A stretch of DNA of 18,551 bases from an archaeon (GTDB lineage: Archaea > Nanobdellota > Nanobdellia > Woesearchaeales > UBA9642). Within the stretch, counting starts at the first letter, position 1. Each line of letters opens with the position of its first letter. The notes beneath the pieces are model-generated. The model saw only the letters and a list, made by a program, of their open reading frames with translations, was not told the origin of the DNA and ran no database searches. The stretch covers positions 1 through 18,551 of the forward strand of contig JAZDHK010000012.1 in NCBI GenBank assembly GCA_043806035.1, written 5' to 3'. A program made the translations under genes and the position numbers. Of the stretch, positions 1-16,896 are shown one piece after another.

Positions 1-2
1 AC

Positions 3-962
3 AGCACCCTCTCCATAGAATGGACATGGTACAACAACTCAGTACAGTACAGCACCGGCATCACAACAGGCGTCAGCAACAACACCAACACCCTCATCAC
101 CACCATGGACGGACAGAACACAACCGCAGGAGAAACCTGGACCTGCGACGTCCGCGCATACGACTCCCAAACATACAGCGCACACAAGAACGCCTCAGTA
201 ACCATCAACACACCCCCCACGACCATCACCCTCCTCAACCCCACAAACGACAACACCACCGTCCGAGATCTCCAACCCGTCTTCAACTGGACGGCAGCAA
301 CGGACGATGATGGGGATGACATCAATTACACGATCAATGTCACGTACAGTTACGGCTGTGACAACCTGCCCATCCTCACTAATAGCACCGTCAACAACTA
401 CACGTCCGCTTTTGAGTTTTGTACGTATTCGGGAGGAACGGCGAGCGAAAGATACTACAACTGGACCGTGCAGGCCTGCGACTATCTCGAATGCGGCGCA
501 TGGGCGACTGCCTTTAACTTCAGCATCCAGCCCTGGGTGAGCATCAACATCACCACGAACAGCATTGATTTCGGCGTCATGGCACCCAATCAGGAAAAGG
601 ACACCACTGCCGATAATCCGCAACCCTTCGTTCTCGTCAATGACGGCAACGTGCAAGCAGACTTAGTGAACATCAGCGGCAATGTCAGCCTGTTCCTCAT
701 GAGCGGTCTAGGCAATGATTCCGTTCAGATCAAAGCGGACAACACCACAGAACTAGACAGTTTCAACTGGACGAGCAGCACCACAGACTGGACAAATCTC
801 ACGGCAAGCAACCAGAGCATCATCAAAGAGCTTGATTACAACAACAGCAAGGACAGTGCAGAGATAGATGTCAAAGTCAAAGTGCCCGGCGACGAGCCTG
901 AAGGCCCAAAACAAACCTGGTTCATCTTCACCTGGCAGGAAACGTGGGAGGGAGCACCATGA
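3..962 (+). CDS. 5'-truncated secreted Ig-domain surface protein with a C-terminal pilin-like domain (candidate tip adhesin)
   Basis: The frame of ORF 105..962 is open back to base 3 (STLSIEWTWYNNSVQY...), so the start lies outside the window. It has an Ig-like GETWTC module, an NTPP/FNWT Ig or FN3-like module, many N-x-S/T sequons, and a C-terminal domain with IDFG...NDGNV...DSAEIDV. There is no C-terminal TM. The stop overlaps the next ATG (ATGA). Confidence 0.8.
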   Translation, partial: STLSIEWTWYNNSVQYSTGITTGVSNNTNTLITTMDGQNTTAGETWTCDVRAYDSQTYSAHKNASVTINTPPTTITLLNPTNDNTTVRDLQPVFNWTAATDDDGDDINYTINVTYSYGCDNLPILTNSTVNNYTSAFEFCTYSGGTASERYYNWTVQACDYLECGAWATAFNFSIQPWVSINITTNSIDFGVMAPNQEKDTTADNPQPFVLVNDGNVQADLVNISGNVSLFLMSGLGNDSVQIKADNTTELDSFNWTSSTTDWTNLTASNQSIIKELDYNNSKDSAEIDVKVKVPGDEPEGPKQTWFIFTWQETWEGAP

Positions 963-2197
963 AAGGCTGGCTCTTCTTCCTGATAGGCCTGCTTCTCATA
1001 GGACAGGCATTTGCCCTCGGCATCGCCCCCTCGCGAGACGTCATGGACTACACATCAAATGAGCAAGTACGACAATTAACTATCATCAACACCAACCACA
1101 AGGACATGAAGCTCGTGCTCTACGCGCAGGGAGAATCCCCTGAAGCAATCACCCTCCCCCAACAGACCGTCTCATTCACTGCTGACGAGAGCGAAAAAAC
1201 GATAGCATACAAGGTGAAACTCCCGAACAACTTCACGCCGGGCAAGCACGAAATCGACATCGTCGTGCTCGAGCTGCCGCAAACGTTCATTGACTCTGAC
1301 CAGAATACCATCGTCACTGATGAGCAGGCGATCGTCTTCAAAAACAAGGAAACGGGTGGCATGATTGGTGCATCAACTGCGCTCATCCAGCAGCTCATCA
1401 TCAACGTCCCCTACCCAGGCATGTACGCGGAAGGCAACCTCTTCATCACCGCCAATGATGTCGACCAGCCCGTGACGTTCACCGTTGGCATTAGCAACAA
1501 AGGAAGCCAAGACCTCACCATCACAGGAAGAGTGAAAATATTGGGGCCGACAAACGAAGAAGTCGGCGTCGTCAGCGCAGACCCTGCACACGTGACTGCA
1601 GGAGAAGAGACAAAGCTCACCATGACCTGGCAGGCAGCCGTGAATCCTGGCGTGTACGCCGCAGAAGCCAACGTGCAATACGGTGAGAAGTACTTCATCA
1701 TCCGTCGGACGTTCGTCATCGGCAAGAATCAAGTGAGCATTCGAGACATGAATGTGGAAAAATTCACCCTCGGCCAAATAGCAAAGCTTGATGTAACTGT
1801 TGAGAATGAGTGGAACCAGAAGGCAGAGAACGTCTACGCCCTCGTCAAAATTTTAGATAGTGGGGGCAGCATGCTCACGTCTTTCTCGACAAGCACCATC
1901 AGCATGAATCCGCAAAGCACAGCAATCCTCAACGGCTACTGGGAGACGCAAGGCATGAGCGTGGGCACGTACACCATCGCTGTCGTCCTCAACTTCGGGG
2001 GCAAGCAAGTGGAACGGTTTTTCGAGACCGTCGTGGGCATTGACAGCCTCAACATCAAGGACTTTAGCAAGATAGGCGGACAGGTCGTCGTAGGGGAGAG
2101 CAAGCAAAACAGCAATACACTCCTGGTTATAGCGATCATCGTCCTGATTGTCGTGAATATCGGCTGGTTCGTCTATCTGCGGAGAAAAAAACAATGA
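959..2197 (+). CDS. Membrane-anchored multi-Ig protein, DUF916/DUF3324 (WxL-interacting)- or PapD-like; paralog 1
   Basis: ATG at 959 follows GGGAGGGAG and overlaps the upstream stop. Signal peptide MKGWLFFLIGLLLIGQAFA-LGIAPSR, about three beta-sandwich domains (TPG, PGVY, GTY motifs), then a C-terminal TM and RRKKQ. Family assignment is by eye. Confidence 0.75.
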   Translation: MKGWLFFLIGLLLIGQAFALGIAPSRDVMDYTSNEQVRQLTIINTNHKDMKLVLYAQGESPEAITLPQQTVSFTADESEKTIAYKVKLPNNFTPGKHEIDIVVLELPQTFIDSDQNTIVTDEQAIVFKNKETGGMIGASTALIQQLIINVPYPGMYAEGNLFITANDVDQPVTFTVGISNKGSQDLTITGRVKILGPTNEEVGVVSADPAHVTAGEETKLTMTWQAAVNPGVYAAEANVQYGEKYFIIRRTFVIGKNQVSIRDMNVEKFTLGQIAKLDVTVENEWNQKAENVYALVKILDSGGSMLTSFSTSTISMNPQSTAILNGYWETQGMSVGTYTIAVVLNFGGKQVERFFETVVGIDSLNIKDFSKIGGQVVVGESKQNSNTLLVIAIIVLIVVNIGWFVYLRRKKQ

Positions 2198-2250
2198 AAA
2201 TAGAAAACTATAAAAACCACGATGTCGGGAATACTCACTGGGTAGGTAGT

Positions 2251-2454
2251 ATGGAGAGAAGCAAAAAGAAATGGATGGTCTTTCTGGTCATCCTGGTTGT
2301 CGTGCTGAGCGTTCTCGGCACGTGGACATTCTTGAGCACCACACACAAAGTGAAAGTAAACAACGAACCCATAGCGGGAGCGGAAATCAAACTCACCATA
2401 CTTGATTCTAAGGAATCGCCATCAGGATTGGCGACAGCAGAGGTGGATGAATAA
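2251..2454 (+). CDS. Small membrane peptide: N-terminal TM plus one amphipathic beta-strand
   Basis: MERSKKKW, TM ending SVLGT, then GAEIKLTILD. An in-frame upstream start at 2194 (ATGA overlap) is also possible. The stop overlaps the next ATG (TAATG). Confidence 0.7.
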   Translation: MERSKKKWMVFLVILVVVLSVLGTWTFLSTTHKVKVNNEPIAGAEIKLTILDSKESPSGLATAEVDE

Positions 2455-3089
2455 TGGACGTTTCGAACAAGACACTGGCAATATTTCTGGTTGCGGCAAT
2501 CGTAGTCAGCATCGCAGGCACATTCGTCAGCCTGAACAGGCTCGGCAAGATGGGTGGGATGACAGGATATGCATTAGACGATACTGGACTCGCCAACCTC
2601 AGCATCAGCACATCAGCATCAATCAGATTCGAGGACGGCTTCAACACCACTGATTTCGGCACAGGATCCATCCCGAACGCTTCATCCGTGTGCTTCCTCT
2701 CCACCACTGCTGGACCGACAGCGGAGTGCTCTGGCTTCGCACAAGGAGGTCCGCTCATCATTGAGAACGACGGCAACGTCAACCTCACCAATGTATCGTT
2801 GAACTCGACAAATAGTGCAGCCGCTTTCATCGGCTCTTGCGGCTCGTTCACGCCAGAATTCCTCTGGAACTTCACACAGAACGAAAGCACCAGTTGCAAC
2901 GCGGGCTACTGGGCTGCTGGTGATTACATGGCCGTCAACACAACGCTGATGAGTATCTGTGAGGGAGCTAACGCATATAATTATGTAGAAGACCATGACA
3001 GTATCCGCATTGACTTCCTGCTGAACATCAGTAGTGATTGCACACCAGGCGCAAAAACTAACATCATCAATCTCGTGGGGACGCAATAA
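2454..3089 (+). CDS. Secreted pilin-like protein (candidate major filament subunit), 211 aa
   Basis: Strong SD GAGGTG upstream. N-terminal TM ending SIAGT, MTGYA motif, beta-strand TGLANLSIS, then DFG...ENDGNV...DSIRIDF...PGAKTNII. Six Cys and many sequons. Confidence 0.75.
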   Translation: MDVSNKTLAIFLVAAIVVSIAGTFVSLNRLGKMGGMTGYALDDTGLANLSISTSASIRFEDGFNTTDFGTGSIPNASSVCFLSTTAGPTAECSGFAQGGPLIIENDGNVNLTNVSLNSTNSAAAFIGSCGSFTPEFLWNFTQNESTSCNAGYWAAGDYMAVNTTLMSICEGANAYNYVEDHDSIRIDFLLNISSDCTPGAKTNIINLVGTQ

Positions 3090-3319
3090 TGGATCAACAA
3101 GAAGTGCAAGAGAGCGACTTTTCCAAACGGACCATCATGGTCCTAGTTGTGCTGACGGTCATCATCAGCCTTGCTGGCACGGCGCTCGTGTCGTACGAGG
3201 TTGTGCATGTCAAGGTTGCCGAACGGCCAGCAATGGATCAGGCAAAGGTGACCCTCACCATCAACCCACTGCCGCCAAAAGCTACAGGAGAAGTGACTTT
3301 AGAGATATTGGCACCATGA
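3089..3319 (+). CDS. Small membrane peptide: N-terminal TM plus two tandem amphipathic beta-strands, 76 aa
   Basis: TAATG and ATGA overlaps at the two ends. TM SKRTIMVLVVLTVIISLAGT resembles that of 2454..3089. Strands QAKVTLTI and TGEVTLEI are separated by NPLPPKA. Confidence 0.75.
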   Translation: MDQQEVQESDFSKRTIMVLVVLTVIISLAGTALVSYEVVHVKVAERPAMDQAKVTLTINPLPPKATGEVTLEILAP

Positions 3320-4473
3320 GAGGTTATTTTTTTCTTATTATTGTTTTATTGTCCACTTCAGGAGTCTCTGCCATTTCCATCTCGCACAATTATTCGAACA
3401 TGGATACACGCACACTCTTCTTCAAACCAGGCATAGATCTCTCCTACAAATTTTACATCCATGGCAGCAATGCCATGGAGTCGTACATCGAAACGAACCT
3501 CCCCCACTATGTCAAGTTAGAAGATCCGCAGCAAGGCACAGGAGAGCGATTCATAACGATGACTATTCACACACCTCCTGACGCGCCAGAACTTACACCT
3601 GGCAATTACGGCATACTCGTCGGCACCAGAGAACTCCCTCCAAGCGAAGGAGGCACGATTGGGACGAGAGCAGCCATCCAGATATTCTTCTTGATTATCG
3701 CGCTCAGTGAAGAAAAAAACGTTCAGTTCAGCCTGTCGGCACCTAACGCCAACCAGAATGAGGTCGTCAACTTCAGCGTGAAGGCGAGCAGCCAGACCAA
3801 ACAGGACATCGAGGATGTCTTCGCACGGCTAGCCGTCTTCGATCCCCAAGGCAAATATCTTGCCACCATAGATACGAACCACAAACGGCTTACTTCGACA
3901 GAAAAAACAACACTACAAGGAAGGTTCTCAACAACAGGGCTAACGCCAGGCATCTATACCATAAAAGGCAATGGCTCCTATGATGGAATGCTCTCATCGC
4001 TGCAGACAACAACGTTCAGGATTGGAGAACTAGACATCAAGCTCGTTGATTACACAAAAGAAGTTGGCATGGGGGGCATAACAAAAATAGAACTCACGGT
4101 TGAGAGCAACTGGAATGGCGTCATCGATGACGTGTACGGCACAGTGCATATTGGTGGCGTCGATAGTCAGCCTGAGCGAACGAGCAATGTCAAACTAGAA
4201 CGGTTCGGTAGAGCAGTCCTGAAAAGCTATTGGGACACGACAAACATCCCTGCAGGAACATATGCGGGAACATTGAGCTTGCATTATGCCCAACAGGAGA
4301 AAAGCATCCCCTTGACCATTTCTGTCGTCACTGACCAGCAACCGACTGGCAAGGAAGAACAGCCGAAAAGCATCACGTTCTCGCCACTGCTCCTCTACGG
4401 CATCGTTGCTGCTCTCATCATCGCCATAGCGGTCATAACGCTCATCTTCGGGAGAAAACGTGAACAAACTTAG
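3316..4473 (+). CDS. Membrane-anchored multi-Ig protein, DUF916/PapD-like; paralog 2
   Basis: The likely start is ATG 3316 (ATGA overlap; signal peptide MRGYFFLIIVLLSTSGVSA). It is colinear with 959..2197: TPG..ELP..IG, PG(I/V)Y, TF(R/V)IG, TVE(S/N)xWN, YW(D/E)T..GTY, and a C-terminal TM with basic tail. Confidence 0.75.
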   Translation: MRGYFFLIIVLLSTSGVSAISISHNYSNMDTRTLFFKPGIDLSYKFYIHGSNAMESYIETNLPHYVKLEDPQQGTGERFITMTIHTPPDAPELTPGNYGILVGTRELPPSEGGTIGTRAAIQIFFLIIALSEEKNVQFSLSAPNANQNEVVNFSVKASSQTKQDIEDVFARLAVFDPQGKYLATIDTNHKRLTSTEKTTLQGRFSTTGLTPGIYTIKGNGSYDGMLSSLQTTTFRIGELDIKLVDYTKEVGMGGITKIELTVESNWNGVIDDVYGTVHIGGVDSQPERTSNVKLERFGRAVLKSYWDTTNIPAGTYAGTLSLHYAQQEKSIPLTISVVTDQQPTGKEEQPKSITFSPLLLYGIVAALIIAIAVITLIFGRKREQT

Positions 4474-4867
4474 CATACTCATTTTTGCCTGTTGTGTGTT
4501 GACAATAGCCGCCACCGCAATAGTGTTCAGCACAATCAACGTCATGGACGTAAAGACAACAGGGCTGACGTTGCAAGTCAAGGAAAAATATGCCTGGAAT
4601 CTCGATGCTGACGCAATCCATTTTGGCGGCGGGCCTCCCGGAACGGTCCAGGAGCGGAAGTTCAACCTGACCACCACCAATCCTACATACGTCAGCATTC
4701 ACGTCAACGGAGATATCAGCAAGTACGTTACTGTTTTGGAAAACGATTTTTTGCTCATGCCTGGAGAACTCAAAAGAGTAAGCATTAAGGCGAAAGTGCC
4801 TGAAAAGCCGACGCAGGAATGGTACAACGGCACGCTCATCGTCTACTTTAAAAGGTGGAACATCTAG
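4460..4867 (+). CDS. Small secreted or membrane pilin-like Ig protein (candidate minor subunit A), 135 aa
   Basis: GTG start after GGGAG, overlapping the upstream gene. N-terminal TM, then IHFG..PPG, VSI..G.IS....V.ENDF.L, and terminal strand YNGTLIVYFKR. Confidence 0.75.
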   Translation: MNKLSILIFACCVLTIAATAIVFSTINVMDVKTTGLTLQVKEKYAWNLDADAIHFGGGPPGTVQERKFNLTTTNPTYVSIHVNGDISKYVTVLENDFLLMPGELKRVSIKAKVPEKPTQEWYNGTLIVYFKRWNI

Positions 4868-5256
4868 CGAAGAACATGCGCACATGGTTATTGCTTTGCA
4901 GCATCATCCTCATCTGCATAGGAGCGACACTGATGCTGTATTCTTTCTTTGTCATCGACCACGTGGAAAGACAGGAATTGAGCATTATTGCGGGTAATGA
5001 GGGCTCTGCCTTCTTCGGCAACGTCACTCCTCCAGGAATAGCGAGCAAGAATATCTCTATCGCAACGAGAGAAGACAGATATGTGAGCATCAAAGCAACA
5101 GGCAGCATCAGCGAATTCATACGCGTTTCCGAAAATGATTTCTTTTTGCCTGCAGGCCAGAGCAAGACCATCAGCCTCACGGTCGACCTACCGTATGATG
5201 CACGAGGCAGGTATGAGGGAACGCTGGTTATGTACTTCAAGCGGTTCAATCTTTGA
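4855..5256 (+). CDS. Small secreted or membrane pilin-like Ig protein (candidate minor subunit B), tandem paralog of 4460..4867
   Basis: N-terminal TM, then FFG..PPG, YVSI..G.IS....V.ENDF.L, and YEGTLVMYFKR. The start is either GTG 4855 or ATG 4876. Confidence 0.75.
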   Translation: MEHLAKNMRTWLLLCSIILICIGATLMLYSFFVIDHVERQELSIIAGNEGSAFFGNVTPPGIASKNISIATREDRYVSIKATGSISEFIRVSENDFFLPAGQSKTISLTVDLPYDARGRYEGTLVMYFKRFNL

Positions 5257-5373: not shown

Positions 5374-5520
5374 ATGGCCAAGACACGACAAGTCAACCTC
5401 AGACTCTCTGAAGACCTCATCAAAGAGCTAGACTGGATAGCAGACGATTTGCACATAAGCAAAGCGGACTGGATCAAAGTAAAACTTGCAGAAGCAGTAA
5501 AGAAAGAGGGCAAACGATGA
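5374..5520 (+). CDS. Ribbon-helix-helix (CopG/MetJ/Arc-like) DNA-binding protein, 48 aa
   Basis: Translated by hand: MAKTRQVNLRLSEDLIKELDWIADDLHISKADWIKVKLAEAVKKEGKR*. Canonical RHH pattern (alternating strand, helix, SK-x-D helix). ATGA overlap with 5517. Too short for the ORF track. Confidence 0.85.
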   Translation: MAKTRQVNLRLSEDLIKELDWIADDLHISKADWIKVKLAEAVKKEGKR

Positions 5521-7382
5521 AAAAAACACTCCTCACCCTGCTGCTCATCCTGCTCGTCATCAATCTGACACAGACCATGCTCATCACACTCCTCACGCCA
5601 GAACCAGCACCAACAGCAAGGCTGGCAACGAGCCTGGTCAAGCTTTGCATCAATCACCCTCCTGAAATCAACAACACCTGCAATGCCACCATGGAGGAGC
5701 ACGAACTGTACACGTGCACCGTCCTTGCCATCGATGACGAGCCTGTGACGTTCTCCTCTGTCTGGATGACAAACATCAGCCAGTTCTTCAACCTCACCTC
5801 TACGGGACTCATCAACACCACGCCAGGAATAACGGATGCAGGCAATCACACCATCCGCATCTACGCAATGGACAATCTGAGCTGCACGAACAGCGTCACA
5901 TTCGAGGACTTCACGTTCGAGGTTGTTAGTATCAACGATCCACCATACCTACTCAGACCGTTACCGAACGTCAGCCTCAATGTCAACACGAGCATTGTCG
6001 CCTTCCTGCTCAATGACTACTTCGCAGATCCTGAAGATGATGCGCTCACGTACACATACACAGGAGGGTCTGGATTCAGCATCAGCATCGACGACGAGAG
6101 TGGTGTTCTTATTAGCACGAACGCATGCGATGCAGGCAGCGTTATCTTCACTGCAATAGAAGTGAACACCTCAGACAGCTACACGGCAAACAGCAACAGT
6201 GTTACGCTCAGCGTCAACTGCCCTGCATCGTCCTCATCCGCAGCAGGAGCGGGCACGGGCGGAGGAACGGGAGGAGGTGGCGCATCAGAGTCCTGCACGC
6301 CAGATTGGAAGTGCAGGCCGTGGAGTGCGTGCTTCGAGAACAGTACGCATTACAAGGAATGCTATGATGCCAACGCGTGCGATGAAAACCACTATGAGCA
6401 CACGGTCTGGGCGAACTGCACCTACATTGCAGGCTACACGTGCCTGGAGAACTGGACATGCACACCCTGGACGAACTGCACACCCAACAACATACACACT
6501 CGGGCGTGCACAGACAACAATACGTGTGGCACAGACCTCCTCAGACCTAATGAGACAGAACCGTGCACGTACATACCCACCTGTTTCGATGGCATCCAAA
6601 ATCAAGGAGAACTCGGAAAGGATTGCGGCGGACCGTGCAGCCGTGTCTGCCCAAAAGATGAACTGCCCACGTTCATCAAGGAAAAGAGCCCATTGACACT
6701 CGTGCTCTCGCTATTCATCTTCATCATCATCGCTCTGTTGCTCGTCTTCAAATTCTTCAGGAAACAAATCTATGATGCAGGAACGTTACTGGTGTGGGCT
6801 GCCACCGAGAAAGTGCTCCTGCCGCCGAAGCTGCCAAGAGAACTGGCAGTATCCTGGCTGGCAGAACTCGACACCATCGAGCAACAGCTGGGCAAGAAAG
6901 ACATTCCCTTGCGTATCCCCAACGTATTCAGACGTGTTCTCGTAAAATTAGTAGGAATCACGCCTGAAGCAACCGTGCAGGACCTGCAACTGCTGCTTAA
7001 AAAACAGAAACTGCCCGAGCTTTTTGCAGACTATCTCAAGACCACGTTCATCAGCATCACCGCACTTGAGTTCGCAAAAGAGAAACCGACGACAGAAACG
7101 CTCGTCCTTGCCATCGAGGAGGCACGGCAATGCATAACCTTCCTCAGCGATGTACCCCGCCAAGCCGTTCCTGAGGAGCGCCAGCACACGTTCGTGGGCA
7201 ATCTTACGTATGCATTCGCCCTGCTCCGCATCAAGAACGTGGCAGGTGCGAAAGAGCGCTATCGACGCCTGCTCCAACAGTATGATCTTCTGCCCTTAAG
7301 CCGAAAAGAAGCGCTCTATCCAGAACTAAACAGGCTTTTCCTTGCCGTGAGTCTTGCAATCAAAGGCGTGCGAAAACAATAA
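5517..7382 (+). CDS. Membrane-spanning surface protein: cadherin-like/Ig domains, Ser/Gly linker, Cys-rich repeats, TM and ~200-aa cytoplasmic helical tail, 621 aa
   Basis: N-terminal hydrophobic segment; INHPP and INDPP domain starts; FADPEDDALTY; two CxxxWxCxPWxxC repeats; CFDGIQNQGELGKDCGGPC; TM LTLVLSLFIFIIIALLLVF followed by KFFRK. Confidence 0.8.
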   Translation: MKKTLLTLLLILLVINLTQTMLITLLTPEPAPTARLATSLVKLCINHPPEINNTCNATMEEHELYTCTVLAIDDEPVTFSSVWMTNISQFFNLTSTGLINTTPGITDAGNHTIRIYAMDNLSCTNSVTFEDFTFEVVSINDPPYLLRPLPNVSLNVNTSIVAFLLNDYFADPEDDALTYTYTGGSGFSISIDDESGVLISTNACDAGSVIFTAIEVNTSDSYTANSNSVTLSVNCPASSSSAAGAGTGGGTGGGGASESCTPDWKCRPWSACFENSTHYKECYDANACDENHYEHTVWANCTYIAGYTCLENWTCTPWTNCTPNNIHTRACTDNNTCGTDLLRPNETEPCTYIPTCFDGIQNQGELGKDCGGPCSRVCPKDELPTFIKEKSPLTLVLSLFIFIIIALLLVFKFFRKQIYDAGTLLVWAATEKVLLPPKLPRELAVSWLAELDTIEQQLGKKDIPLRIPNVFRRVLVKLVGITPEATVQDLQLLLKKQKLPELFADYLKTTFISITALEFAKEKPTTETLVLAIEEARQCITFLSDVPRQAVPEERQHTFVGNLTYAFALLRIKNVAGAKERYRRLLQQYDLLPLSRKEALYPELNRLFLAVSLAIKGVRKQ

Positions 7383-7569: not shown

Positions 7570-7690
7570 CATCATCATACCCGATGAACTCCACAAAGAG
7601 CTCAAGCTCCAGGCATTCAAAGAAAACAAAAGCCTCAAAGAGCTCATCATCGAACAGCTCGACAAGGAAACTCGGAAGGTGCGGCTATGA
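7556..7690 (+). CDS. Ribbon-helix-helix protein, 44 aa, tandem paralog of 7438..7569
   Basis: Translated by hand: MGNINIIIPDELHKELKLQAFKENKSLKELIIEQLDKETRKVRL*. SD GGAGAGG upstream; ATGA overlap with 7687. Confidence 0.85.
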   Translation: MGNINIIIPDELHKELKLQAFKENKSLKELIIEQLDKETRKVRL

Positions 7691-10600
7691 GAAAACTCAT
7701 TCTGCTCGGCATCATCTTCCTCATGACAATCGTGCTCATGCACGGCCTCACCCTGACCGGTCCAAGCTGGACTCCCTCTGCTGCAAGAACCAACGACACA
7801 CTCAACTGTTCCTGGACGTACAGCATAGACACGATTGCCCAGAACATAACCCTGCTAAACGACAGTATCGTCTACACGAGCGTCTACGAGAATGCGAGCG
7901 AAATGACATTGAACACGTGGACCAGCATTGCTGCAGGAACGGCAAAGAAAGGAGAACAGTGGACGTGCCAAATAACACTATTCAACGAAACGAACAATCT
8001 CACCCAGCAAACAAACATCACCATCCTCAACAGTGTGCCATCCATCAGCGAAGCGCCTGCAGGCATTTTCTGGAATGGGTCTGACATCGGCTACACGTTC
8101 ACCGTTCTCGAGGACACGAACTACAGCATTGATGTAAACGCAACGGACCTGGATGGGGACACGCTCACGTATCTCAGCACTGATCCTTTCTGCTACCGCA
8201 TCAGCAGCACGCTCGGTACATACTGGTGCTTGCCGACCAACGACTATCTTGACACACCCACCCTCTCGACCAAGGTCAACATCAGTTTCACTGTTCACGA
8301 TGGCAGTGATGGTGTCGTACGTATCGTCTCCTTTAATATCACCCCTATCAACGACTATCCCTCATTCAGCCTGAGCGATCAAAGCATGTACCAGAACGAG
8401 ACGTTGAACGTCACCGTTATCGTTGTTGATGAGGAATCCGACAATTTCACGTTCAACGTCATGGCAAACAGCTCACTGAACTACAGCACGGAGCGGCTTG
8501 ACGGCTCAAGCTTCATTATCACGTTCACTCCCACCATTTTCCAGACAGGAAATTTCATCATCACCGTCAACGTCACTGACCTGCCGAACTGGACGAGCAC
8601 GAACAGGACAACAGTCGACAGCTTCAACCTCGTCGTGCTCAGCGTCAATCACGCACCGAACATCACCAACATCAGCAACACGGCAGGAACGCAGAACCAG
8701 GCATACACGGTCGTCGTGAATGCCACCGACCTCGACAATCAGACGTTGCTCTTTTCCATTGCCGCCCCGAATTGCCCCTACGCCAATCTCTGGAACATTA
8801 CCAGCAGCTCAGCGTACAACGAAACGACACATCTTACCTCAGGGAATGGGACGATCAGTGCCGTGCTGAACAACAGCCACGTGGTTTGCAGGAACGTCAC
8901 CATCCAGGTGAATGACGGCTTTGACGGGGAGGATGAGGAAGTCGTGCTTCTGAACATTACTAATGTCAACGATGCTCCACAGCTCTTCAACTACAGCAAC
9001 CGCTCGGACAACACCTACCCCACAGTTAATGTCTATACTGCAAACCTTACCGCATACGCGTATGCACCATTCATCTATCACTTGAACTATACGGACATCG
9101 ACAATCTCACGTACGAGGGAGAGATATTAAGCTTCAGCGACAACACCAGCCTCTTTACTATTACCTCTCAGGGCGTCATCAATTTCACGCCCAACCAGGA
9201 CAATGTGAGCGCAACCCCGTACTCAATCACTATCAACGTCACTGATGATGGAGGGCTCTCTGATGGTCACATCGCATATCTCACCATCGTCGGCAACAGC
9301 CCTCCTTATTTCGATGCCGAATTCCAAAACCACACCTGTTATGAGTATGACAGCCAAAACTATCCCTATACCTGCCTCGTGAACGTCAGCAATTTCACGC
9401 ACGACACCGACCTGAACGATTACGTTGCCTCATTTGCGAGCAATGATTCCACCTTCTCGCTCAATGCAACAACAGGCATGCTCAACGTCAGCATAACGCA
9501 GAGCATGATCGGCAACCACTCCCTCAACATTTCCGTTGAAGATACGTATGGTGCCGAGAACTGGACACTGTTCAGGTTGGAGATTCTGAACACGAACAAC
9601 CCCCCTAATCTACAAAGCTTCACCCTTCCGCGATTGGTGGAAGAGCACACCATAACGCAATTAGTCGTCGCCACAGACAGTGACCTGGACATAGCTGCAG
9701 ACGAGCTCACGTTCAGCATTGATACCAATGCCAGCTTTGCCGCACTTGCACAGTTGAGCAATACCAGCGCACGCTGGACTATAGCCCCGCTCGAAGGCAG
9801 TGCAGGCACGTACTATGCCAACATCACCGTGACGGACCAGTCAGGCAACACCTCGCTGCTCAACTTCACGCTACTCGTCTACAATCAGACCCTCCCCCCG
9901 TCCATCAACAACATTACGCCGTACGGTACACCGCTCGCGGCGAGCACGACTTTTTCTTGGGTTGAGAACAACCTGACGAATTTCCCCTATCGACGCACGG
10001 GCATTAATTTGACAGAGAACATAACCATAACCCTCAACCATTCCACGACGCTCGATAATCCGCTCGCGAACAATGCGACCTACACCTGGTATAGGAATGC
10101 ATCAGTCCTGAGCACGGGCCTGCGAGAGAGCAACCACACGCTGAACGTCAGCCTTGACTTCTTCAGTGCAGGCAGTTACAACTACACCCTTTTTATCGTG
10201 GATGACTACTACCAGAACAGCAGTTTCTCCTGGATTGCCACCGTTGAAAATGTCAACAGGCCACCCATTCTCAACAGTTCCTTGAGTAACAAGACCGTGA
10301 ATGGCACCACCACTTTCAGCAGCTACCTGTCGAGCACCAACACTACGCCGCAACGCGGTTTTTTCGACCCTGATGATGATCTGAACAGCAACTCGTACAT
10401 TGAGGGAAACGAGAGCAATCATTTATCCTACACGGCAAGCGTGTGCAGCATTGCAACACTCACCATGTCGGGAAACGACCTCACCGTCATCCCGAATGAG
10501 ACAGGTGTGTGTACCGTCATTTTCACCGCAGACGATGGCAGTGCTACGGTCAACAGCAATCTCGTCACTATCAACATCACCGGCCTGCTGAACACCACAA

Positions 10601-11346
10601 CGACGACAACGACGACAAGCTCAGGAGGGGGGACATCCACGCGGACCATTTCCATCCCTCTGCCTGAAGAAGTGGACCGTCCGGTACCGCTCAAGATTGT
10701 CACGCCGCGACTCGTCGTCATCTTCAAGAACCAGACCTTGCAAATTCCTCTTGACGTGCACAGCACCTGGAACGACACACTCTACGACATCAACCTAAGT
10801 GTCGACGTGAACGTGAGCAACATCACTGCAACGTTCGACCAGAGCCACATTCCTTCCTTGTCAAAGAATGAGACGAAAGCAATCATGCTCACGCTGAGCA
10901 ACTACCGCTCCAACGGCACGTACGAGCTACAAGTGGTCGCAAAAGTCGCCTCTCCCGAATATGAGGATCGGGCAACGATCTTCGTCAACAGTCTCGAGAA
11001 GAGCAGCAGCGGCGATGAAGTGAACACCAAAGTGACGTTCGCTCGAGACTTGCTGGGTTCGAATCCTGAATGCCAGGAACTGAACGAGCTGCTCACGCGC
11101 GCAGAAGATGCCATCCTTGCAGGGAATACAACCCAGGGCGTAGAACTCATCAATGCGGTCATTGAAGGCTGCAAGTATCTCGTGAATAAGGTCAGGCTCA
11201 ACCAGGAGCAGCCGCAACGTCAAGATCCCTTGCGCAACATCAGGGATATCGTGGAGAACAATAAGACGCTCCTGCTCTTCGGTGTAGGACTGCTGGCATT
11301 GCTTGTGGGCATACTCATTACGGGAAGGGCGCTCAAGAAATCGTGA
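7687..11346 (+). CDS. Large membrane-anchored surface protein/adhesin with tandem cadherin-like/Ig repeats, 1219 aa
   Basis: Signal peptide; GEQWTC Ig module; repeat boundaries NSVP, NDYP, NHAP, NDAP, NSPP, NNPP and NRPP with DxD acidic motifs; Thr8-SSGGG linker; a further Ig domain; a helical bundle with a Cys pair; C-terminal TM. Very dense N-x-S/T sequons. Confidence 0.85.
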   Translation: MRKLILLGIIFLMTIVLMHGLTLTGPSWTPSAARTNDTLNCSWTYSIDTIAQNITLLNDSIVYTSVYENASEMTLNTWTSIAAGTAKKGEQWTCQITLFNETNNLTQQTNITILNSVPSISEAPAGIFWNGSDIGYTFTVLEDTNYSIDVNATDLDGDTLTYLSTDPFCYRISSTLGTYWCLPTNDYLDTPTLSTKVNISFTVHDGSDGVVRIVSFNITPINDYPSFSLSDQSMYQNETLNVTVIVVDEESDNFTFNVMANSSLNYSTERLDGSSFIITFTPTIFQTGNFIITVNVTDLPNWTSTNRTTVDSFNLVVLSVNHAPNITNISNTAGTQNQAYTVVVNATDLDNQTLLFSIAAPNCPYANLWNITSSSAYNETTHLTSGNGTISAVLNNSHVVCRNVTIQVNDGFDGEDEEVVLLNITNVNDAPQLFNYSNRSDNTYPTVNVYTANLTAYAYAPFIYHLNYTDIDNLTYEGEILSFSDNTSLFTITSQGVINFTPNQDNVSATPYSITINVTDDGGLSDGHIAYLTIVGNSPPYFDAEFQNHTCYEYDSQNYPYTCLVNVSNFTHDTDLNDYVASFASNDSTFSLNATTGMLNVSITQSMIGNHSLNISVEDTYGAENWTLFRLEILNTNNPPNLQSFTLPRLVEEHTITQLVVATDSDLDIAADELTFSIDTNASFAALAQLSNTSARWTIAPLEGSAGTYYANITVTDQSGNTSLLNFTLLVYNQTLPPSINNITPYGTPLAASTTFSWVENNLTNFPYRRTGINLTENITITLNHSTTLDNPLANNATYTWYRNASVLSTGLRESNHTLNVSLDFFSAGSYNYTLFIVDDYYQNSSFSWIATVENVNRPPILNSSLSNKTVNGTTTFSSYLSSTNTTPQRGFFDPDDDLNSNSYIEGNESNHLSYTASVCSIATLTMSGNDLTVIPNETGVCTVIFTADDGSATVNSNLVTINITGLLNTTTTTTTTSSGGGTSTRTISIPLPEEVDRPVPLKIVTPRLVVIFKNQTLQIPLDVHSTWNDTLYDINLSVDVNVSNITATFDQSHIPSLSKNETKAIMLTLSNYRSNGTYELQVVAKVASPEYEDRATIFVNSLEKSSSGDEVNTKVTFARDLLGSNPECQELNELLTRAEDAILAGNTTQGVELINAVIEGCKYLVNKVRLNQEQPQRQDPLRNIRDIVENNKTLLLFGVGLLALLVGILITGRALKKS

Positions 11347-12134: not shown

Positions 12135-13214
12135 ATGACAAAAGCGGGAAATTTCCGTTGGGACCAGTTCGTGGAACAGCCCAAGGAAAAGAAGAATGTC
12201 GAGGCAATCACGAAAGTAGAGGTGCACGAAGACAAAAAAGAATTCGAGAAGCTCGTACAGAACTACCAGACTGACGTGCAGAGCATCAAGGACGAAATGC
12301 AGAAAGTGGTCGTCGGCCAGGAAAAACTGGTCGAGGGACTCATCGAAGCATTGCTCTGCAACGGCCACGTCCTCGTCGAGGGCATTCCGGGCATTGCAAA
12401 AACACTCACCATCCGCGCAGTGAGCGTCATCACCGGAGGCGTCTTCTCAAGAATACAGTTCACGCCAGACCTCCTCCCCACAGATATTGTCGGCATAACG
12501 ACCTATGAGGAAGGCAAGGGATTCTATACCGTTAAGGGACCAATCTTTGCCAATTTTGTGCTCGCAGATGAAATCAACAGAAGCCCTCCTAAAGTGCAGT
12601 CTGCACTCCTGGAAGCTATGCAAGAACGACAGGTGACGATAGGCAAGGAGAGCTTCACCCTTCCCAGTCCTTTCTTCGTGATGGCCACCCAGAATCCCGT
12701 CGAGAACCTGGGAACGTACAAGCTGCCCGAGGCGCAGATAGACCGGTTCATCTTCAAGCTGCTCGTCACCTATCCCAGCATGGACCATGAACTGCAGATC
12801 CTGCAAAAGAACATCACCCTGCACAATTTTGAAGAATTCAACCTCAAGCCCATACTGACTCCTACAAAGATACTCTCCGCACAGGCAGAAGTCAAAAAAG
12901 TATACATCGACGAACGCATCTCCAAATACGTCGTCACCATCGTCGAGGCGACACGGCACCCGGACAAGTACAAGATCGAGCACGGCAAGTACATAGAATT
13001 CGGGGGCAGCCCCCGTGCAAGCATCGCCCTCTTCATCGCCGCAAAAGCACACGCCTTCATCAACGGGAGGACATATGTCACACCCCAAGACATCAAAGAC
13101 GTCTGCCATCAAGTGCTACGACACAGAATCCTCCTCAACTATGAAGGACAAGCCGAGGAGATAAACACGGACGCGATCATTACCGAAATTCTGAACACCA
13201 TCCCCGTGCCCTGA
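12135..13214 (+). CDS. moxR: MoxR-family AAA+ ATPase
   Basis: Walker A GIPGIAKT, RIQFTPDLLPTD, Walker B LADEINR, ATQNPVE..GTYKLPEAQIDRF, SPRA, LRHRI. Confidence 0.96.
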   Translation: MTKAGNFRWDQFVEQPKEKKNVEAITKVEVHEDKKEFEKLVQNYQTDVQSIKDEMQKVVVGQEKLVEGLIEALLCNGHVLVEGIPGIAKTLTIRAVSVITGGVFSRIQFTPDLLPTDIVGITTYEEGKGFYTVKGPIFANFVLADEINRSPPKVQSALLEAMQERQVTIGKESFTLPSPFFVMATQNPVENLGTYKLPEAQIDRFIFKLLVTYPSMDHELQILQKNITLHNFEEFNLKPILTPTKILSAQAEVKKVYIDERISKYVVTIVEATRHPDKYKIEHGKYIEFGGSPRASIALFIAAKAHAFINGRTYVTPQDIKDVCHQVLRHRILLNYEGQAEEINTDAIITEILNTIPVP

Positions 13215-13217
13215 ACC

Positions 13218-14111
13218 ATGGCCATCAACGAACTCAAAGTGGAAAACATTCCGGGCCTCAAGAAATTGGAGGTGCACACACGGCAGAACGTGCTGAACAA
13301 GGCCCTCGAGGGAAACTGGATGGCGTCCTTCAAAGGAAGAGGCATGGAATTCGCAGGCTACAGAAAATACACGTTCGGCGATGATGCGAGCGCTATTGAC
13401 TGGAAGGCAAGCCTCAAGAGCAAGCAAACGCTCGTCAAAGAATATGAAGAGGAAAGGACGCTGAACGTGCTCCTTCTGGTCGATGTGAGCAACAGCATGC
13501 TGTTCAGCAGCACGGGCAAGCTCAAGGCAGAATACGCGGCGGAGCTCGTCGCCAGCTTAAGCTTTGCCATCCTTTCCTGCGGCGACGCCGTCGGCATGAG
13601 CATGTTCACGGACAGGCTCGTGACGAAAAGCCAGCCAAACATAGGCAAGACGGTATATTACATGCTCATTAGGGACATCCTGAACACGAAAAATTATGGA
13701 GGCATGTTCTCCTTCAAAGTCCCCGTTAGCCATCTTCTTGCCATCCTGGACAGGAAGAGCATCATCATCATCATCTCCGACTTCATCGGCATGGAGAAGA
13801 ACTGGGCGCACATCCTCGCCACGGCGGCAGGCCAGCACGAAATTATCGCCATCATGATCCGCGACCCGAGAGACAGGGAACTGCCCAAGGACATCGCCCA
13901 GTACATCGTCGAAGACCCCTACACAGGAGAGAAGCTCTACATCGACACAAAAAAATTCGGCAAGAAGTACGCAGAATACGCACGCAAGGACGAAGAAGCC
14001 ATCGAGCACGAATTCAAAAAAAGAAAGTGCGACTTCCTCAAACTCTACACCGACCAGGATTATTTCAACCCCATCATCGCCTTCTTCCGCAAGAGGTCAG
14101 TATCACAATGA
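13218..14111 (+). CDS. DUF58 domain (vWA-like) protein
   Basis: GRGMEFAGYRKYTFGDD...IDWKAS, KEYEEER, MIDAS-like DVSNSM and ISDF. Sits in the usual position after moxR. Confidence 0.93.
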   Translation: MAINELKVENIPGLKKLEVHTRQNVLNKALEGNWMASFKGRGMEFAGYRKYTFGDDASAIDWKASLKSKQTLVKEYEEERTLNVLLLVDVSNSMLFSSTGKLKAEYAAELVASLSFAILSCGDAVGMSMFTDRLVTKSQPNIGKTVYYMLIRDILNTKNYGGMFSFKVPVSHLLAILDRKSIIIIISDFIGMEKNWAHILATAAGQHEIIAIMIRDPRDRELPKDIAQYIVEDPYTGEKLYIDTKKFGKKYAEYARKDEEAIEHEFKKRKCDFLKLYTDQDYFNPIIAFFRKRSVSQ

Positions 14112-15064
14112 ACCTGAGCTTCGGCAATCCCGCCTATTTGTGGTACTTGCTAAGTGTTCCTTTGCTCATCATCACGCACTTTGTGCTGCTCAAACACACG
14201 AAAAGCAAGGCGATGAAATTCGCAAATTTTGAAGCGTTGCGCAGGGTCAGCAGCGAAGGCATCCTCACCAAGAATTACACGCTGCTCATCACCAGGGTTC
14301 TCATGCTGACACTGCTCATCTTCGCCATTGCGGACGCCACGCTCTGGTATGAGGGCAAGGCAAGCCTCAACACGTACATCATCGCCATCGACGTCAGTGC
14401 CAGCATGGCAGCGCAAGACCTCCAGCCCACGCGTTTAGAAACGGCAAAGGAATATGCGCGCATGTTCGTTACCGATTCAAAAGCGCAGGCTACCTTCGGC
14501 GTGATAAGCTTCTCTGGCATTCCGTTCATCGCACAAACGCCGACGACAGACAAGCAACCCGTCCTAAACGCCATCAACCAGTTAGAAGTCGTGAATGCCG
14601 GCGGCACGGATCTTGCAGGAGCGATCATCACGGCAACGAACCTCCTGGCGACAAGCAGCGGAGGCAAGGCAATCATCCTTTTAACTGATGGGAGCACCAC
14701 TGCAGGCTATCTCGATGACGATCCCGTCCTCGTCAGCACGCGGTATGCCGTGCAGAATAACGTGCGCGTCCACACTATCGGCGTAGGAGAATTAGGAGGT
14801 CCCATCGGTTACCTGCCTGAGTTCTACAACATCACCTCTGCGTACCAGGAAGACGATCTCAAATACATCGCAAACAAGACTGGTGGCATGTACTATCACG
14901 CAAAGACTGCCGAAGACATCAGGCACGCCTATGAGGAACTAGACACGGAATCGAAACTCACTATGCTGAATGTTAAGTTAGGACCCCTCCTCCTGCTCGC
15001 AGGACTCCTCCTGCTCTTCCTCGAATGGGGACTCGTAAATACGAGATTCAAGAGGGTGCCGTGA
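14108..15064 (+). CDS. BatA-like membrane vWA-domain protein
   Basis: Start ATG 14108 (ATGA overlap). BatA-type N-terminus F.NP.YLW.LL.VP, TM, MIDAS DVSASM, GGTDL, LLTDG, HTIGVG, and C-terminal TM ending LLFLEW. Confidence 0.9.
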   Translation: MNLSFGNPAYLWYLLSVPLLIITHFVLLKHTKSKAMKFANFEALRRVSSEGILTKNYTLLITRVLMLTLLIFAIADATLWYEGKASLNTYIIAIDVSASMAAQDLQPTRLETAKEYARMFVTDSKAQATFGVISFSGIPFIAQTPTTDKQPVLNAINQLEVVNAGGTDLAGAIITATNLLATSSGGKAIILLTDGSTTAGYLDDDPVLVSTRYAVQNNVRVHTIGVGELGGPIGYLPEFYNITSAYQEDDLKYIANKTGGMYYHAKTAEDIRHAYEELDTESKLTMLNVKLGPLLLLAGLLLLFLEWGLVNTRFKRVP

Positions 15065-15588: not shown

Positions 15589-16896
15589 TTATAATTTATC
15601 CGCAGTCAGCACTTGCATGCCGCCGGTCGGTTGCTCGACGGTGTCCATGGCGCAAAGATAGGATACGCCTGCGCGCTCTGCTGCTTGCATGAGCTCCTTG
15701 TCGATGATGCCGTCGAAGATGACTGCGAAGATGCCTGACTTCAGGCTCTTGATCGTGCCACCAAGTTCAGTGACGGGAACCTTGCCAAGAATGGTCAGGC
15801 TGTTGTCGAGGATGTACGCTCCTCTCGTCCCTATCAAGGATTCGAGCAGTTCAGAGAAGCTTGCCCGTTCTTCATCAGTGAGTTTGCGTGGTTCTTTGCG
15901 GGGCATCTGCCTATCCTGGCGTTCAGGACGGTCTTGCCTTTCTGACCTGGAGTCCTGTCGGGATTCTCTCTCCTGGCGAGGGTCTGGCCGTTGCTGGCGC
16001 TGCTCTCGCTTGCGTTCTTCCTGCTGCGTCATGATGCTGTTGTGGTACTGGGAGCCTTCCTTGCCCGTAATCTCCAGTTTCACCTGCTCGGCTGCAATCC
16101 TGCTGCGCAAGGCCTTGTGGATTTCCTTCTTTGCGAGCTCTTCCACTTCCTTGCCGTCAGGTGCCTTGGTGATGTAGTCAATATCAGTCACGTCGAGCAA
16201 CTCCTGGATGATGAGGTTGCCGCCTCTGTCGCCATCGACAAAGACCGTGACCACCTTCTTCCTGCACAAGTCGATGACCGTCTCAGGAACTGAGGAACCG
16301 TTGATGGCTATGCAGTTCTTGAAGCCGTGCTTGAGCATATTAAGGACGTCTGCCCTGCCTTCTACGACGATGATTTCTTCAGACTCGTCGATCATGGGGC
16401 CTGCAGGGACGCGATCCTTGCCGTACTCCTTGATTTCAGAGACTCTGACGGAGCTGGACACTTCATCAGCAAGATCTCTTGAGTCGGGCATCATGTCTTC
16501 TGTCAGCGTCTTGAGGAGTTCCTTTGCACGTTCGATGACGAACTGCCTCTTCGAGATTCTGACGTCTTCTATCTTATCGACCAGGATTTTTGCGTTGCAC
16601 GGACCTATTCGTTGAATAATCTCCAATGCTGCCGCGACGATTGCCGTCTCTGACTTGTCCAGAGAACTGGGCAGGATGATCTCTCCCTTTGTCTTTCCGT
16701 TCCTAATTTCGAGGTTGACCTCTATTCGTCCTATCTTTCCTGAGCGCTGTAATTCTCTCAATTCAAGGTCTGCTCCAAGAAGTCCTTCTGTCTGGCCAAA
16801 AACTGCTCCTATGACGTCTGGCCTGTCCACGACACCATCTATCTGGATGGCACTGTGTACTATGTATTTTGCCGCTACCGGGCTTATCTTTCCCAT
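15589..16896 (-). CDS. dnaG: Archaeal DnaG (bacterial-type primase homolog, exosome-associated)
   Basis: N-terminal GVVDRPDVIGAVFGQTEGLLG..L.LRELQRSGKIGRI; TOPRIM motifs VEGRADV and DGDRGG; APDGKEVEEL. SD AGGTGA upstream (plus strand TCACCT, 16901-16906). Confidence 0.96.
   Translation of the reverse strand: MGKISPVAAKYIVHSAIQIDGVVDRPDVIGAVFGQTEGLLGADLELRELQRSGKIGRIEVNLEIRNGKTKGEIILPSSLDKSETAIVAAALEIIQRIGPCNAKILVDKIEDVRISKRQFVIERAKELLKTLTEDMMPDSRDLADEVSSSVRVSEIKEYGKDRVPAGPMIDESEEIIVVEGRADVLNMLKHGFKNCIAINGSSVPETVIDLCRKKVVTVFVDGDRGGNLIIQELLDVTDIDYITKAPDGKEVEELAKKEIHKALRSRIAAEQVKLEITGKEGSQYHNSIMTQQEERKREQRQQRPDPRQERESRQDSRSERQDRPERQDRQMPRKEPRKLTDEERASFSELLESLIGTRGAYILDNSLTILGKVPVTELGGTIKSLKSGIFAVIFDGIIDKELMQAAERAGVSYLCAMDTVEQPTGGMQVLTADKL

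Follow-up and report, generated by a model that had tools for sequence, protein, structure and literature searches.

What do eight overlapping genes at the end of a small archaeal contig build? The genes occupy positions 3-5256, all on the forward (+) strand, of contig JAZDHK010000012.1 from assembly GCA_043806035.1 (order Woesearchaeales). The entire 18,551-bp contig was analysed and is referred to here as the window; the genome to which it belongs comprises 1.5 Mb in 42 contigs and is 93.7% complete. A preliminary description, made from the DNA letters and a list of open reading frames (ORFs), had proposed that the genes form an undescribed system for a chaperone-assisted surface filament polymerised by donor-strand exchange, with a tip adhesin, a major subunit, minor subunits and membrane-tethered chaperones. 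Our analysis of gene order, protein families and predicted structures points in the same direction: the cluster probably encodes a surface fibre that a Woesearchaeota-type (DPANN) archaeon assembles by donor-strand exchange with the help of chaperones, and what it builds is most likely a thin fibre with a giant sticky protein at its tip. To our knowledge, little has been established about the attachment of DPANN archaea to other cells.

The eight ORFs, named g1 to g8 in their order along the contig, follow one another with overlaps of 4, 4, 1, 1, 4, 14 and 13 nt; translational coupling had been noticed for most of them, and all seven junctions indeed overlap (by 1-14 nt). The topologies given in the preliminary description for the two anchored immunoglobulin (Ig)-like proteins starting at 959 and 3316 (g2 and g6), for the transmembrane peptides starting at 2194 and 3089 (g3 and g5) and for the protein starting at 2454 (g4) were found again, and the Shine-Dalgarno sequence that it had singled out as the best, GAGGTGG, precedes g4; a good Shine-Dalgarno-like sequence also precedes g2. 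None of the eight proteins encoded within 3-5256 showed an above-cut-off match in Pfam or NCBIfam.

The gene set is kept together in other genomes. Profile searches with the g4 family recovered 2600 representatives at E<=1e-3 (452 at E<=1e-30), and informative Pfam families were matched by 0 of the 149 aligned members. The family was present in 105 of the 201 sampled genomes of the order (three unpublished genomes, G121, G132 and G183, count towards this tally and towards no other result) and in 160 of the 301 genomes of a phylum-wide sample, all the listed matches belonging to the same order or class; two database sources label g4 homologs as "Candidatus Woesearchaeota archaeon". Twenty stretches of 16 kb were fetched around g4-family matches in other genomes, and thirty further loci were taken from other families of the class (50 loci in all). 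The order g5-like, g4 (one to three copies), g6-like, g7-like was found by profile searches in 18 of the 20 stretches, a count that is not independent of the single-sequence searches, as the profiles were partly built from those loci; single-sequence searches with the window proteins recovered the same neighbours in the 20 loci. In the 18 loci with the full order, a g5-family gene stands before g4, g6 lies directly after g4, and g7 comes after g6. In 12 of the 20 loci, the same stretch contained a giant g1-like gene with a g2-like gene after it, and the association of g4, g6 and g7 was seen again in the thirty further loci. Tandem copies of g4, up to three, were found in L027, L029, L030, L035 and other loci, and many of these copies have a g5-like peptide gene of their own in front of them; a single g4 and two such peptides, g3 and g5, are encoded in the window. 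The preliminary description had left it to synteny across related genomes to speak for or against the proposal, and the objection that these genes are not co-conserved fails, since the order g5-g4-g6-g7 recurs across the loci.

The proposed major pilin is the 211-aa product of g4 (2454-3089, +). Its AlphaFold2 (AF2) model, obtained with the 149-row family alignment (predicted local distance difference test, pLDDT, 92.4), consists of a helix (residues 3-32), a segment without regular structure (33-56) and a beta sandwich (57-211), the latter being a putative acceptor domain that carries conserved Cys. The segment between helix and sandwich holds two motifs: a nearly invariant T-G-[FY]-A at residues 37-40 (motif frequencies), and, at residues 44-51, the donor-strand-like T-[GA]-x-[VI]-x-[LF]-x-[IV]. 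Comparison of the g4 profile with the sequences in PDB gave a chance-level lectin match only (E 0.11). The top Foldseek rows for the model, all at E>1e-3, were almost all donor-strand filament subunits (Csu, FimA, TasA fibre, CS20, PapA, CanA, CupE, Caf1 and the archaeal bundling pilus, ABP). The VIA comparison with PDB representatives, which is independent of Foldseek, returned 33 of 48,161 chains at Z>=5, none of them at Z>=8, and the top seven were all donor-strand filament subunits: TLP-1b (Z 6.9), FimA (6.3), the Hyper2 tube (6.2), CanA (6.0), CS17 (6.0), PapH (5.8) and PapA (5.8). TLP-1 is described, in the available part of its source, as environmental fibrils that assemble via an N-terminal donor strand (PMC11494351). 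The TasA fibre (8aur, Z 5.5) and ABP (7ueg, Z 5.1) were further matches. The exact g4 protein is contained in the ESM Atlas, where its named structural neighbours are DUF4402, WxL and TasA/Peptidase_M73 clusters (TM-scores of 0.46-0.59), all of them under the bar of the Atlas search.

The ability of g4 to polymerise was explored by complex prediction with ESMFold2, using three copies of residues 31-211, the family alignment and three controls. The outcome was "supports binding", with a median score of 0.45 (runs of 0.00, 0.60 and 0.45) against 0.00 for the best of the three controls; in the calibration, 20 of 30 solved pairs attained the score mark, as did 1 of 23 single chains. The runs agreed in at least 10% of the contacts, with a partner pLDDT of at least 74. 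In the predicted trimer, residues 39-54 of one copy contact three segments of its neighbour (54-59, 64-74 and 194-211): the last strand of the acceptor is met in antiparallel orientation (pairs 45-207, 47-205 and 42-208), the pairs 43-58, 49-68 and 52-72 run along its first strand, and Gly45, Val47, Leu49 and Ile51 also contact residues 101, 125, 136, 188 and 192 within the neighbour's sandwich. The predicted interface has the donor-strand exchange geometry of chaperone-usher pili and of ElrD, from the Elr/WxL pilus of Bacillota. Interface positions were better conserved than the rest (2.0-2.1 versus 1.47 bits), a difference reached in 0 of 10,000 permutations. The preliminary description expected the N-terminal strand of one copy to complete the fold of its neighbour, and the prediction places that strand inside the sandwich of the next copy; its proposal of g4 as the major subunit gains in silico support from this interface and from the donor-strand pilins among the best fold matches, and g4 is best regarded, at the level of models, as a polymerising fibre subunit.

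The same fold matches bear on a different reading, in which g4 would be a matrix or sheath protein similar to TasA, ABP or cannulae that assembles by itself in a chaperone-free manner, the anchored Ig proteins being unrelated adhesins or anchors similar to TapA/AbpB. TasA fibre, ABP, CanA and TLP-1 are among the fold matches of g4 (Z 5.1-6.9), TasA/Peptidase_M73 clusters are among its ESM Atlas neighbours, a SipW-type peptidase gene occurs in 2 of the 30 further loci (see below), and the ABP operon is described, in the part of the report available, as having a gene for a 410-aa three-domain signal-peptide protein after the pilin gene (PMC9245690). Nevertheless, Peptidase_M73 was matched by none of the 149 g4-family members, and the strict linkage to g6 and g7, together with adhesins ending in the acceptor domain, fits a tipped and assisted pilus better; chaperone-free self-assembly is thus a quite improbable explanation of the locus.

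The N-terminal helix of g4 was the basis for considering a third kind of filament. It is the most conserved part of the family (mean 2.96 bits), as it is in type IV pilins; the AF2 model combines a helix with a beta sandwich; and the type IV ATPases and the prepilin peptidase of the genome, as well as its KGQ-type pilins, are located on other contigs. An unusual type IV-like filament might accordingly be imagined in which the helices of g4 and g3/g5 pack into a core, the peptidase site is non-canonical and the machinery is encoded elsewhere. This is the least probable of the readings weighed here. The residues before the helix of g4 are N-K-T and not [KR][GA], while the genome's own pilins, encoded beside a type IV ATPase, start with K-G-Q; the helix has only ~30 residues, with a 24-residue coil between it and the domain; no archaeal pilin or archaellin appeared among the top 50 fold matches of g4; no homologs of the genome's ATPases or prepilin peptidase, nor of a platform protein, were found in the 50 loci; and distant members of the family have lost the helix sequence while keeping T-G-[FY]-A and the strand motif. 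In Pfam and NCBIfam, the window proteins matched no family of type IV pilus ATPases, prepilin peptidases or sortases, in agreement with the preliminary description, which had seen no class III signal peptide, PilB/PilC-type gene or sortase. Its view of the genes as the parts list of a non-type-IV filament is supported in silico by a g4 devoid of [KR][GA] and by the ATPase/peptidase-free loci.

A candidate for the processing of g4 is signal peptidase I. A gene for an archaeal/SipW-type enzyme lies directly 3' of the g7-like gene in 2 of the 30 further loci (L063:3109-3579, + strand, TIGR02228 at 54.4 bits, above the cut-off; L067:447-917, - strand, 44.4 bits, below the cut-off), both in genomes that belong to another family.

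The truncated g1 (3-962, +, open at its 5' end) represents the C-terminal 319 aa of what appears to be a giant glycosylated adhesin; it lacks its 5' end because the window is a whole contig and the gene is cut by the contig end. Residues 170-310 are homologous to the g4 domain (hhalign against the g4 family, 97.5%, E 8e-12), so that the final ~140 aa of g1 form a g4-like acceptor domain, without a transmembrane helix. Its full-length homologs have 590-1900 aa, are rich in N-glycosylation sequons, include LamG/beta-helix-like parts, contain no transmembrane helix and end exactly in the g4-like domain, which, by best domain, occupied the extreme C-terminus in 8 of the 9 g1-like ORFs. The earlier assignment of this gene to a tip adhesin is supported in silico, because its end is the same acceptor domain as in g4. 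There are 21 sequons in the 319 aa of g1, and their density (6.6 per 100 aa in g1 and 5.2 in g4, versus 0-0.8 in g2, g3, g5 and g6) separates the presumably exposed parts from the other four proteins. A paralogous adhesin C-terminus accompanied by a g2-like gene was located on a second contig of the genome (C11, positions 1-3782, 3.8 kb), whose end repeats the first ~45 codons of the window, indicating that the assembly broke inside repeated adhesin sequence; the two copies could be paralogous loci or strain variants.

The small peptides g3 (2194-2454, +) and g5 (3089-3319, +, 76 aa) had been seen in the preliminary description as transmembrane peptides, their role being left unexplained; here they prove to carry donor-strand-like repeats on a transmembrane segment of the g4 type. 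Their family corresponds to the N-terminal helix of g4 plus a short tail, with no domain (family hhalign 97.6%, E 3e-12), and in the tails of the g5 family the motif T-[GA]-x-[VI]-x-[LF]-x-[IV], which g4 has at residues 44-51, occurs twice (column counts). The product of g3, which the g5 profile matches at 3.8e-19 (hmmsearch), has the g4-type N-terminal transmembrane segment and then two donor-strand-like segments, the first clear and the second degenerate; a globular domain is lacking. Both g3 and g5 are without the T-G-[FY]-A motif of g4 (family alignment). Judged by these sequence features, g3 and g5 look like donor-strand-only anchor or terminator subunits.

The paralogous proteins g2 (959-2197, +, ATG start with GTG at 944 as alternative) and g6 (3316-4473, +, 385 aa; phmmer 2e-16 between the two) are both anchored at their C-terminus. 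The product of g2 has a signal peptide, three beta domains, a C-terminal membrane-spanning helix and a basic tail; the AF2 model of g6 (pLDDT 90.8) shows a signal helix, three beta domains (D1, 21-130, of PapD-like/ASH type; D2, 136-237, CARDB-like; D3, 241-338) and a C-terminal transmembrane helix (357-383). More distant g2/g6-like anchored proteins are encoded on two other contigs of the genome (C20:6764-7939 and C30:4353-5618, E 4e-15 and 1e-8). In the g2/g6 family alignment, built from the genome loci, the Pfam family WxLIP_HBD (DUF3324) was matched by 10 of the 53 members (best 3.6e-9) and not by g6. Among the top 50 matches of the wide structural search with g6, only WxLIP was covered over most of its length across two domains: the VIA match to WxLIP 9i1y_A of Enterococcus faecium (Z 10.9, root-mean-square deviation 10.1 A, 207 of 267 residues aligned, model residues 18-237) and that to the WxL-bound WxLIP 9i25_C (Z 9.6) have scores tied with those of generic tandem Ig proteins. 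The whole-model Foldseek matches of g6 were tandem ASH or Ig proteins, and its ESM Atlas neighbours were generic CARDB/NEW3/DUF11 proteins. An S-layer identity was also considered and rejected: no S-layer family was matched, the sole trace being a cluster named "COG1361 S-layer family protein" with a TM-score of 0.39 for g6. A role of g2 and g6 as membrane-tethered chaperones is plausible because of the C-terminal transmembrane helix, the gene order, the weak DUF3324 match, the WxLIP fold match and the PapD-like/ASH first domain. We propose that g2 is a membrane-anchored chaperone or dock for the acceptor domain of g1, and g6 a membrane-tethered chaperone of g4.

The word dock leads to the alternative of a membrane docking complex that forms no fibre. 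In such a complex the g4-like domain would be a docking module, with g2 holding g1 and g6 holding g4, and the products of g4, g3, g5, g7 and g8 would stay anchored by their uncleaved N-terminal helices and form a surface patch. The parallel pairs g1/g2 and g4/g6, built from paralogous or domain-sharing genes, are consistent with this arrangement, as are the transmembrane helix that each component has or adjoins, the putative status of the cleavage of g4, and the fact that WxLIP, according to the portion of the report available, was first described as binding and stabilising WxL proteins on the surface (PMC10599100). We regard a docking complex as unlikely, given that it does not account for the two-repeat, donor-strand-only peptides, for the head-to-tail insertion of strands predicted between g4 copies or for the polymerising pilins as the best fold matches of g4, and that other genomes contain up to three g4 copies in tandem.

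The products of g7 (4460-4867, +, GTG start) and g8 (4855-5256, +, GTG start with ATG at 4876 as alternative) had been taken for minor, pilin-like subunits, which was not borne out. The two proteins are paralogous (phmmer 7e-15), and g7 has an N-terminal transmembrane anchor and a single PapD-like/ASH beta domain. The g7 family is homologous to D1 of g6/g2 (hhalign 96.6%, E 7e-10), and its profile matched ASH domains of ciliary proteins in PDB (FAP65, 1.2e-11; HYDIN, 4e-10), a domain type labelled "ASH / PapD-like" in PDB entry 6fvi. The homology to the first domain of the anchored proteins and the ASH matches indicate that g7 and g8 are not pilins; on these grounds we propose them as accessory assembly factors.

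A mechanism for the donor-strand fibre can be put together from these parts. The product of g4 would enter the membrane via its family-specific N-terminal signal-anchor and would probably be released by signal peptidase I, either at T-G-[FY]-A or at an A-G-T motif inside the helix. Its new N-terminal segment (44-51) would insert between the first and last strands of the next subunit, antiparallel to the last one, and repeated insertion from g4 to g4 would build the linear polymer of the predicted model. The g1 adhesin would cap the distal tip, because its C-terminal end is an acceptor domain and it lacks a donor segment of its own kind. Before the exchange, g2 and g6 may keep the g1 and g4 acceptor domains in place at the membrane, in the manner of the chaperones ElrE of the Elr pilus and PamC/D of the Pam pilus of bacteria of the Candidate Phyla Radiation (CPR), while g3 and g5 would fill the groove of the last subunit and tether the fibre to the membrane. 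The products of g7 and g8, on their N-terminal anchors, would serve as accessory assembly factors, and the finished fibre would present the giant adhesins for attachment to other cells.

Several observations weigh against this fibre. The Foldseek search of g4 against PDB gave no match at E<=1e-3, and all its VIA fold matches have Z<8, a range where only a common arrangement may be reflected; therefore the fold evidence is suggestive and not decisive. One of the three homotrimer runs scored 0.00, the job differed from the calibration in its three copies and custom alignment, and the pass may also mirror the likeness of g4 to solved donor-strand pili; part of the conservation at the interface would be seen anyway, since loops vary more than core strands. 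A plain signal peptide does not account for how extremely the helix is conserved (2.96 bits on average), T-G-[FY]-A lies about 10-14 residues past the helix, which is far for signal peptidase I, and an N-terminal helix left uncleaved would tether every subunit, making a long fibre hard to build. On the chaperone side, the WxLIP_HBD match of the window's g2 (2.6e-5, 24.6 bits) is below the cut-off of 28.9, DUF916 was matched by 0 of the 53 g2/g6 members, and no classical PapD-type or chaperone-usher chaperone appeared among the top 50 matches of g6 in Foldseek or VIA, where the three-domain model was searched whole.

Downstream of the cluster, the window contains further surface genes. A 48-aa ORF (5374-5520, +) of ribbon-helix-helix type (CopG-like; Pfam RHH_1, E 6e-4, 20.0 bits versus a cut-off of 20.5), with a stop that overlaps the start codon of its neighbour at 5517, may regulate the surface genes that follow. 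This neighbour, g9 (5517-7382, +), encodes 621 aa with a signal peptide, an Ig-like region, a Cys-rich region (23 Cys), a transmembrane helix and a cytoplasmic helical tail of ~200 aa. A g9 homolog lies beside the cassette in 9 of the 20 loci, and contig C20 carries a g9 paralog together with its g2/g6-like gene; g9 may belong to the pilus system. The 1219-aa surface protein encoded at 7687-11346 (+) has tandem-95/cadherin-like repeats, 83 N-glycosylation sequons and a C-terminal membrane-spanning helix, and its homolog adjoins the g9-like gene in L036. The operon at 12135-15064 (+), with a MoxR-type AAA ATPase, a DUF58 protein and a BatA-like VWA membrane protein, seems to be an ordinary Bat/MoxR module unrelated to the pilus cluster. 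The window also encodes an archaeal DnaG primase (15589-16896, -; NF003108, 2e-147), in which a low-complexity insert of ~50 residues, rich in Arg, Glu and Gln, lies near residue 290, and a proteasome-activating nucleotidase; these two genes identify the source as an archaeon.

Found in roughly every second genome sampled from the order and physically linked to giant glycosylated adhesins, the cassette is a concrete candidate for an attachment organelle. If the fibre reading is true, the fibre would be a likely host-attachment organelle of these archaea, and a pathway just described in Bacillota and in CPR bacteria would extend to a third major group of wall-less or thin-walled small cells, raising the question of common descent versus convergence. 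Names and annotations could be given to the g4 family, whose 2600 representatives have no counterpart in Pfam, and to those of g5, g6 and g7.

Close in architecture is the Elr/WxL pilus of Enterococcus faecalis and other Bacillota, to which it is reported to be confined. As described in the part of the preprint available (bioRxiv 10.64898/2026.10.17.759780), ElrE is a DUF916/DUF3324 chaperone with a C-terminal transmembrane helix, ElrA is a tip adhesin ending in a pilin-type domain, ElrB is a donor-only terminator, and the donor consensus is [S/T]-x-[G/A]-x-[V/I]-x-F. The archaeal cluster shares with this outline a g4 whose donor strand is predicted at the N-terminus and whose acceptor domain would be an incomplete beta sandwich, a donor motif in which Gly/Ala is followed by alternating V/I and F/L, a tip adhesin with a variable payload and a pilin-type domain at the extreme C-terminus, a chaperone candidate with a C-terminal membrane-spanning helix and, in part of its family, a weak DUF3324 match, a small donor-only subunit with an anchor, the absence of an usher and, in the prediction only, a donor strand antiparallel to the acceptor's C-terminal strand. 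It differs in that WxL (PF13731) was matched by 0 of the 149 g4-family members at E<=0.1, the link between g4 and WxL consisting of an ESM Atlas cluster only (TM-scores of 0.51/0.59, under the bar), with no solved WxL chain among the VIA matches listed. DUF916 is likewise unmatched, and the anchored protein has three domains where the Elr chaperone, as far as described, has two. Its donor-only peptides sit on an N-terminal transmembrane helix and have two repeats, whereas Elr uses LPxTG and sortase; no sortase or LPxTG protein was found among the window proteins (ORF list, Pfam, NCBIfam). A long and highly conserved signal-anchor in g4, the additional single-domain PapD-like/ASH proteins g7 and g8, and an archaeal host without peptidoglycan are further differences from the Elr system as it is described. 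On the WxL and sortase features, as judged by sequence, the cluster falls outside the WxL family; its chaperone candidates match DUF3324 in part and DUF916 not at all.

The Pam pilus of the CPR bacterium Ca. Mycosynbacter amalyticus, compared by description only from the available part of its report (PMC13278184), is an Ig-fold donor-strand pilus reported as exclusive to CPR, with PapD-like PamC/D chaperones carrying a C-terminal transmembrane helix, an acceptor-only tip and an anchored donor terminator, PamR. The ultrasmall, episymbiont-type host, the membrane-anchored chaperones, the acceptor-only tip, the membrane-anchored donor, the paired cysteines of the pilins and the lack of trans-envelope machinery are, on the proposed reading, common to both. 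However, g4 has one domain and an N-terminal strand, whereas the Pam pilins have two domains and donate the strand of the inter-domain linker, and PamR, unlike g3/g5, is a two-domain RbmA-like protein with a C-terminal transmembrane helix.

Among archaeal filaments, AbpA, threads and CanA share with g4 the archaeal host, a Sec signal peptide, an N-terminal donor strand, glycosylation and a non-type-IV nature; unlike the present system, they are described, in the sources as far as available, as chaperone-free homopolymers without tip adhesins, in Thermoproteota. The accessible part of the ABP report mentions no chaperone or usher candidate (PMC9245690), for the cannulae, the polymerisation is called chaperone-free in the title of the paper, and a chaperone goes unmentioned in the abstract of the thread preprint. 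The comparison of the g4 profile with PDB sequences gave no sequence similarity to ABP/CanA-type filaments, and TasA/AbpA differ from g4 in the Peptidase_M73 family (PF12389), matched by 0 of the 149 members. Chaperone-usher pili (Fim, Pap, Csu, CFA/I) resemble the system in their pilin fold (matches to g4 at Z 5.5-6.3), in their two-part adhesins with a C-terminal pilin domain and in the concept of a chaperone on a PapD-like fold, and differ from it in that the archaeon has no usher and no periplasm and its chaperone candidates are membrane-anchored; PapD_N/PapD_C and usher families were matched neither by the window proteins nor by the 53 g2/g6 members.

The term "undescribed" used in the preliminary description holds for the archaea, as full-text searches combining donor strand with Woesearchaeota/DPANN returned no description of such a system in these organisms; it no longer holds for the architecture as such, which is that of 2026 preprints on Bacillota (Elr/WxL) and CPR (Pam). 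Going further, we tentatively entertain, with less than even confidence, that this is the first chaperone-guided donor-strand pilus of Archaea, and that Woesearchaeales and related Nanoarchaeia use it as their main means of displaying giant adhesins; that it is a distant WxL/Elr homolog, in view of the DUF3324-like chaperone and the donor motif, the pathway then existing in both prokaryotic domains; and that the helix common to the pilin and to the double-donor, "headless" peptide acts as an intramembrane assembly and anchoring platform replacing usher or sortase. By analogy, the best reading of the cluster is that its architecture corresponds to that of two bacterial pili, Elr/WxL in Bacillota and Pam in CPR bacteria.

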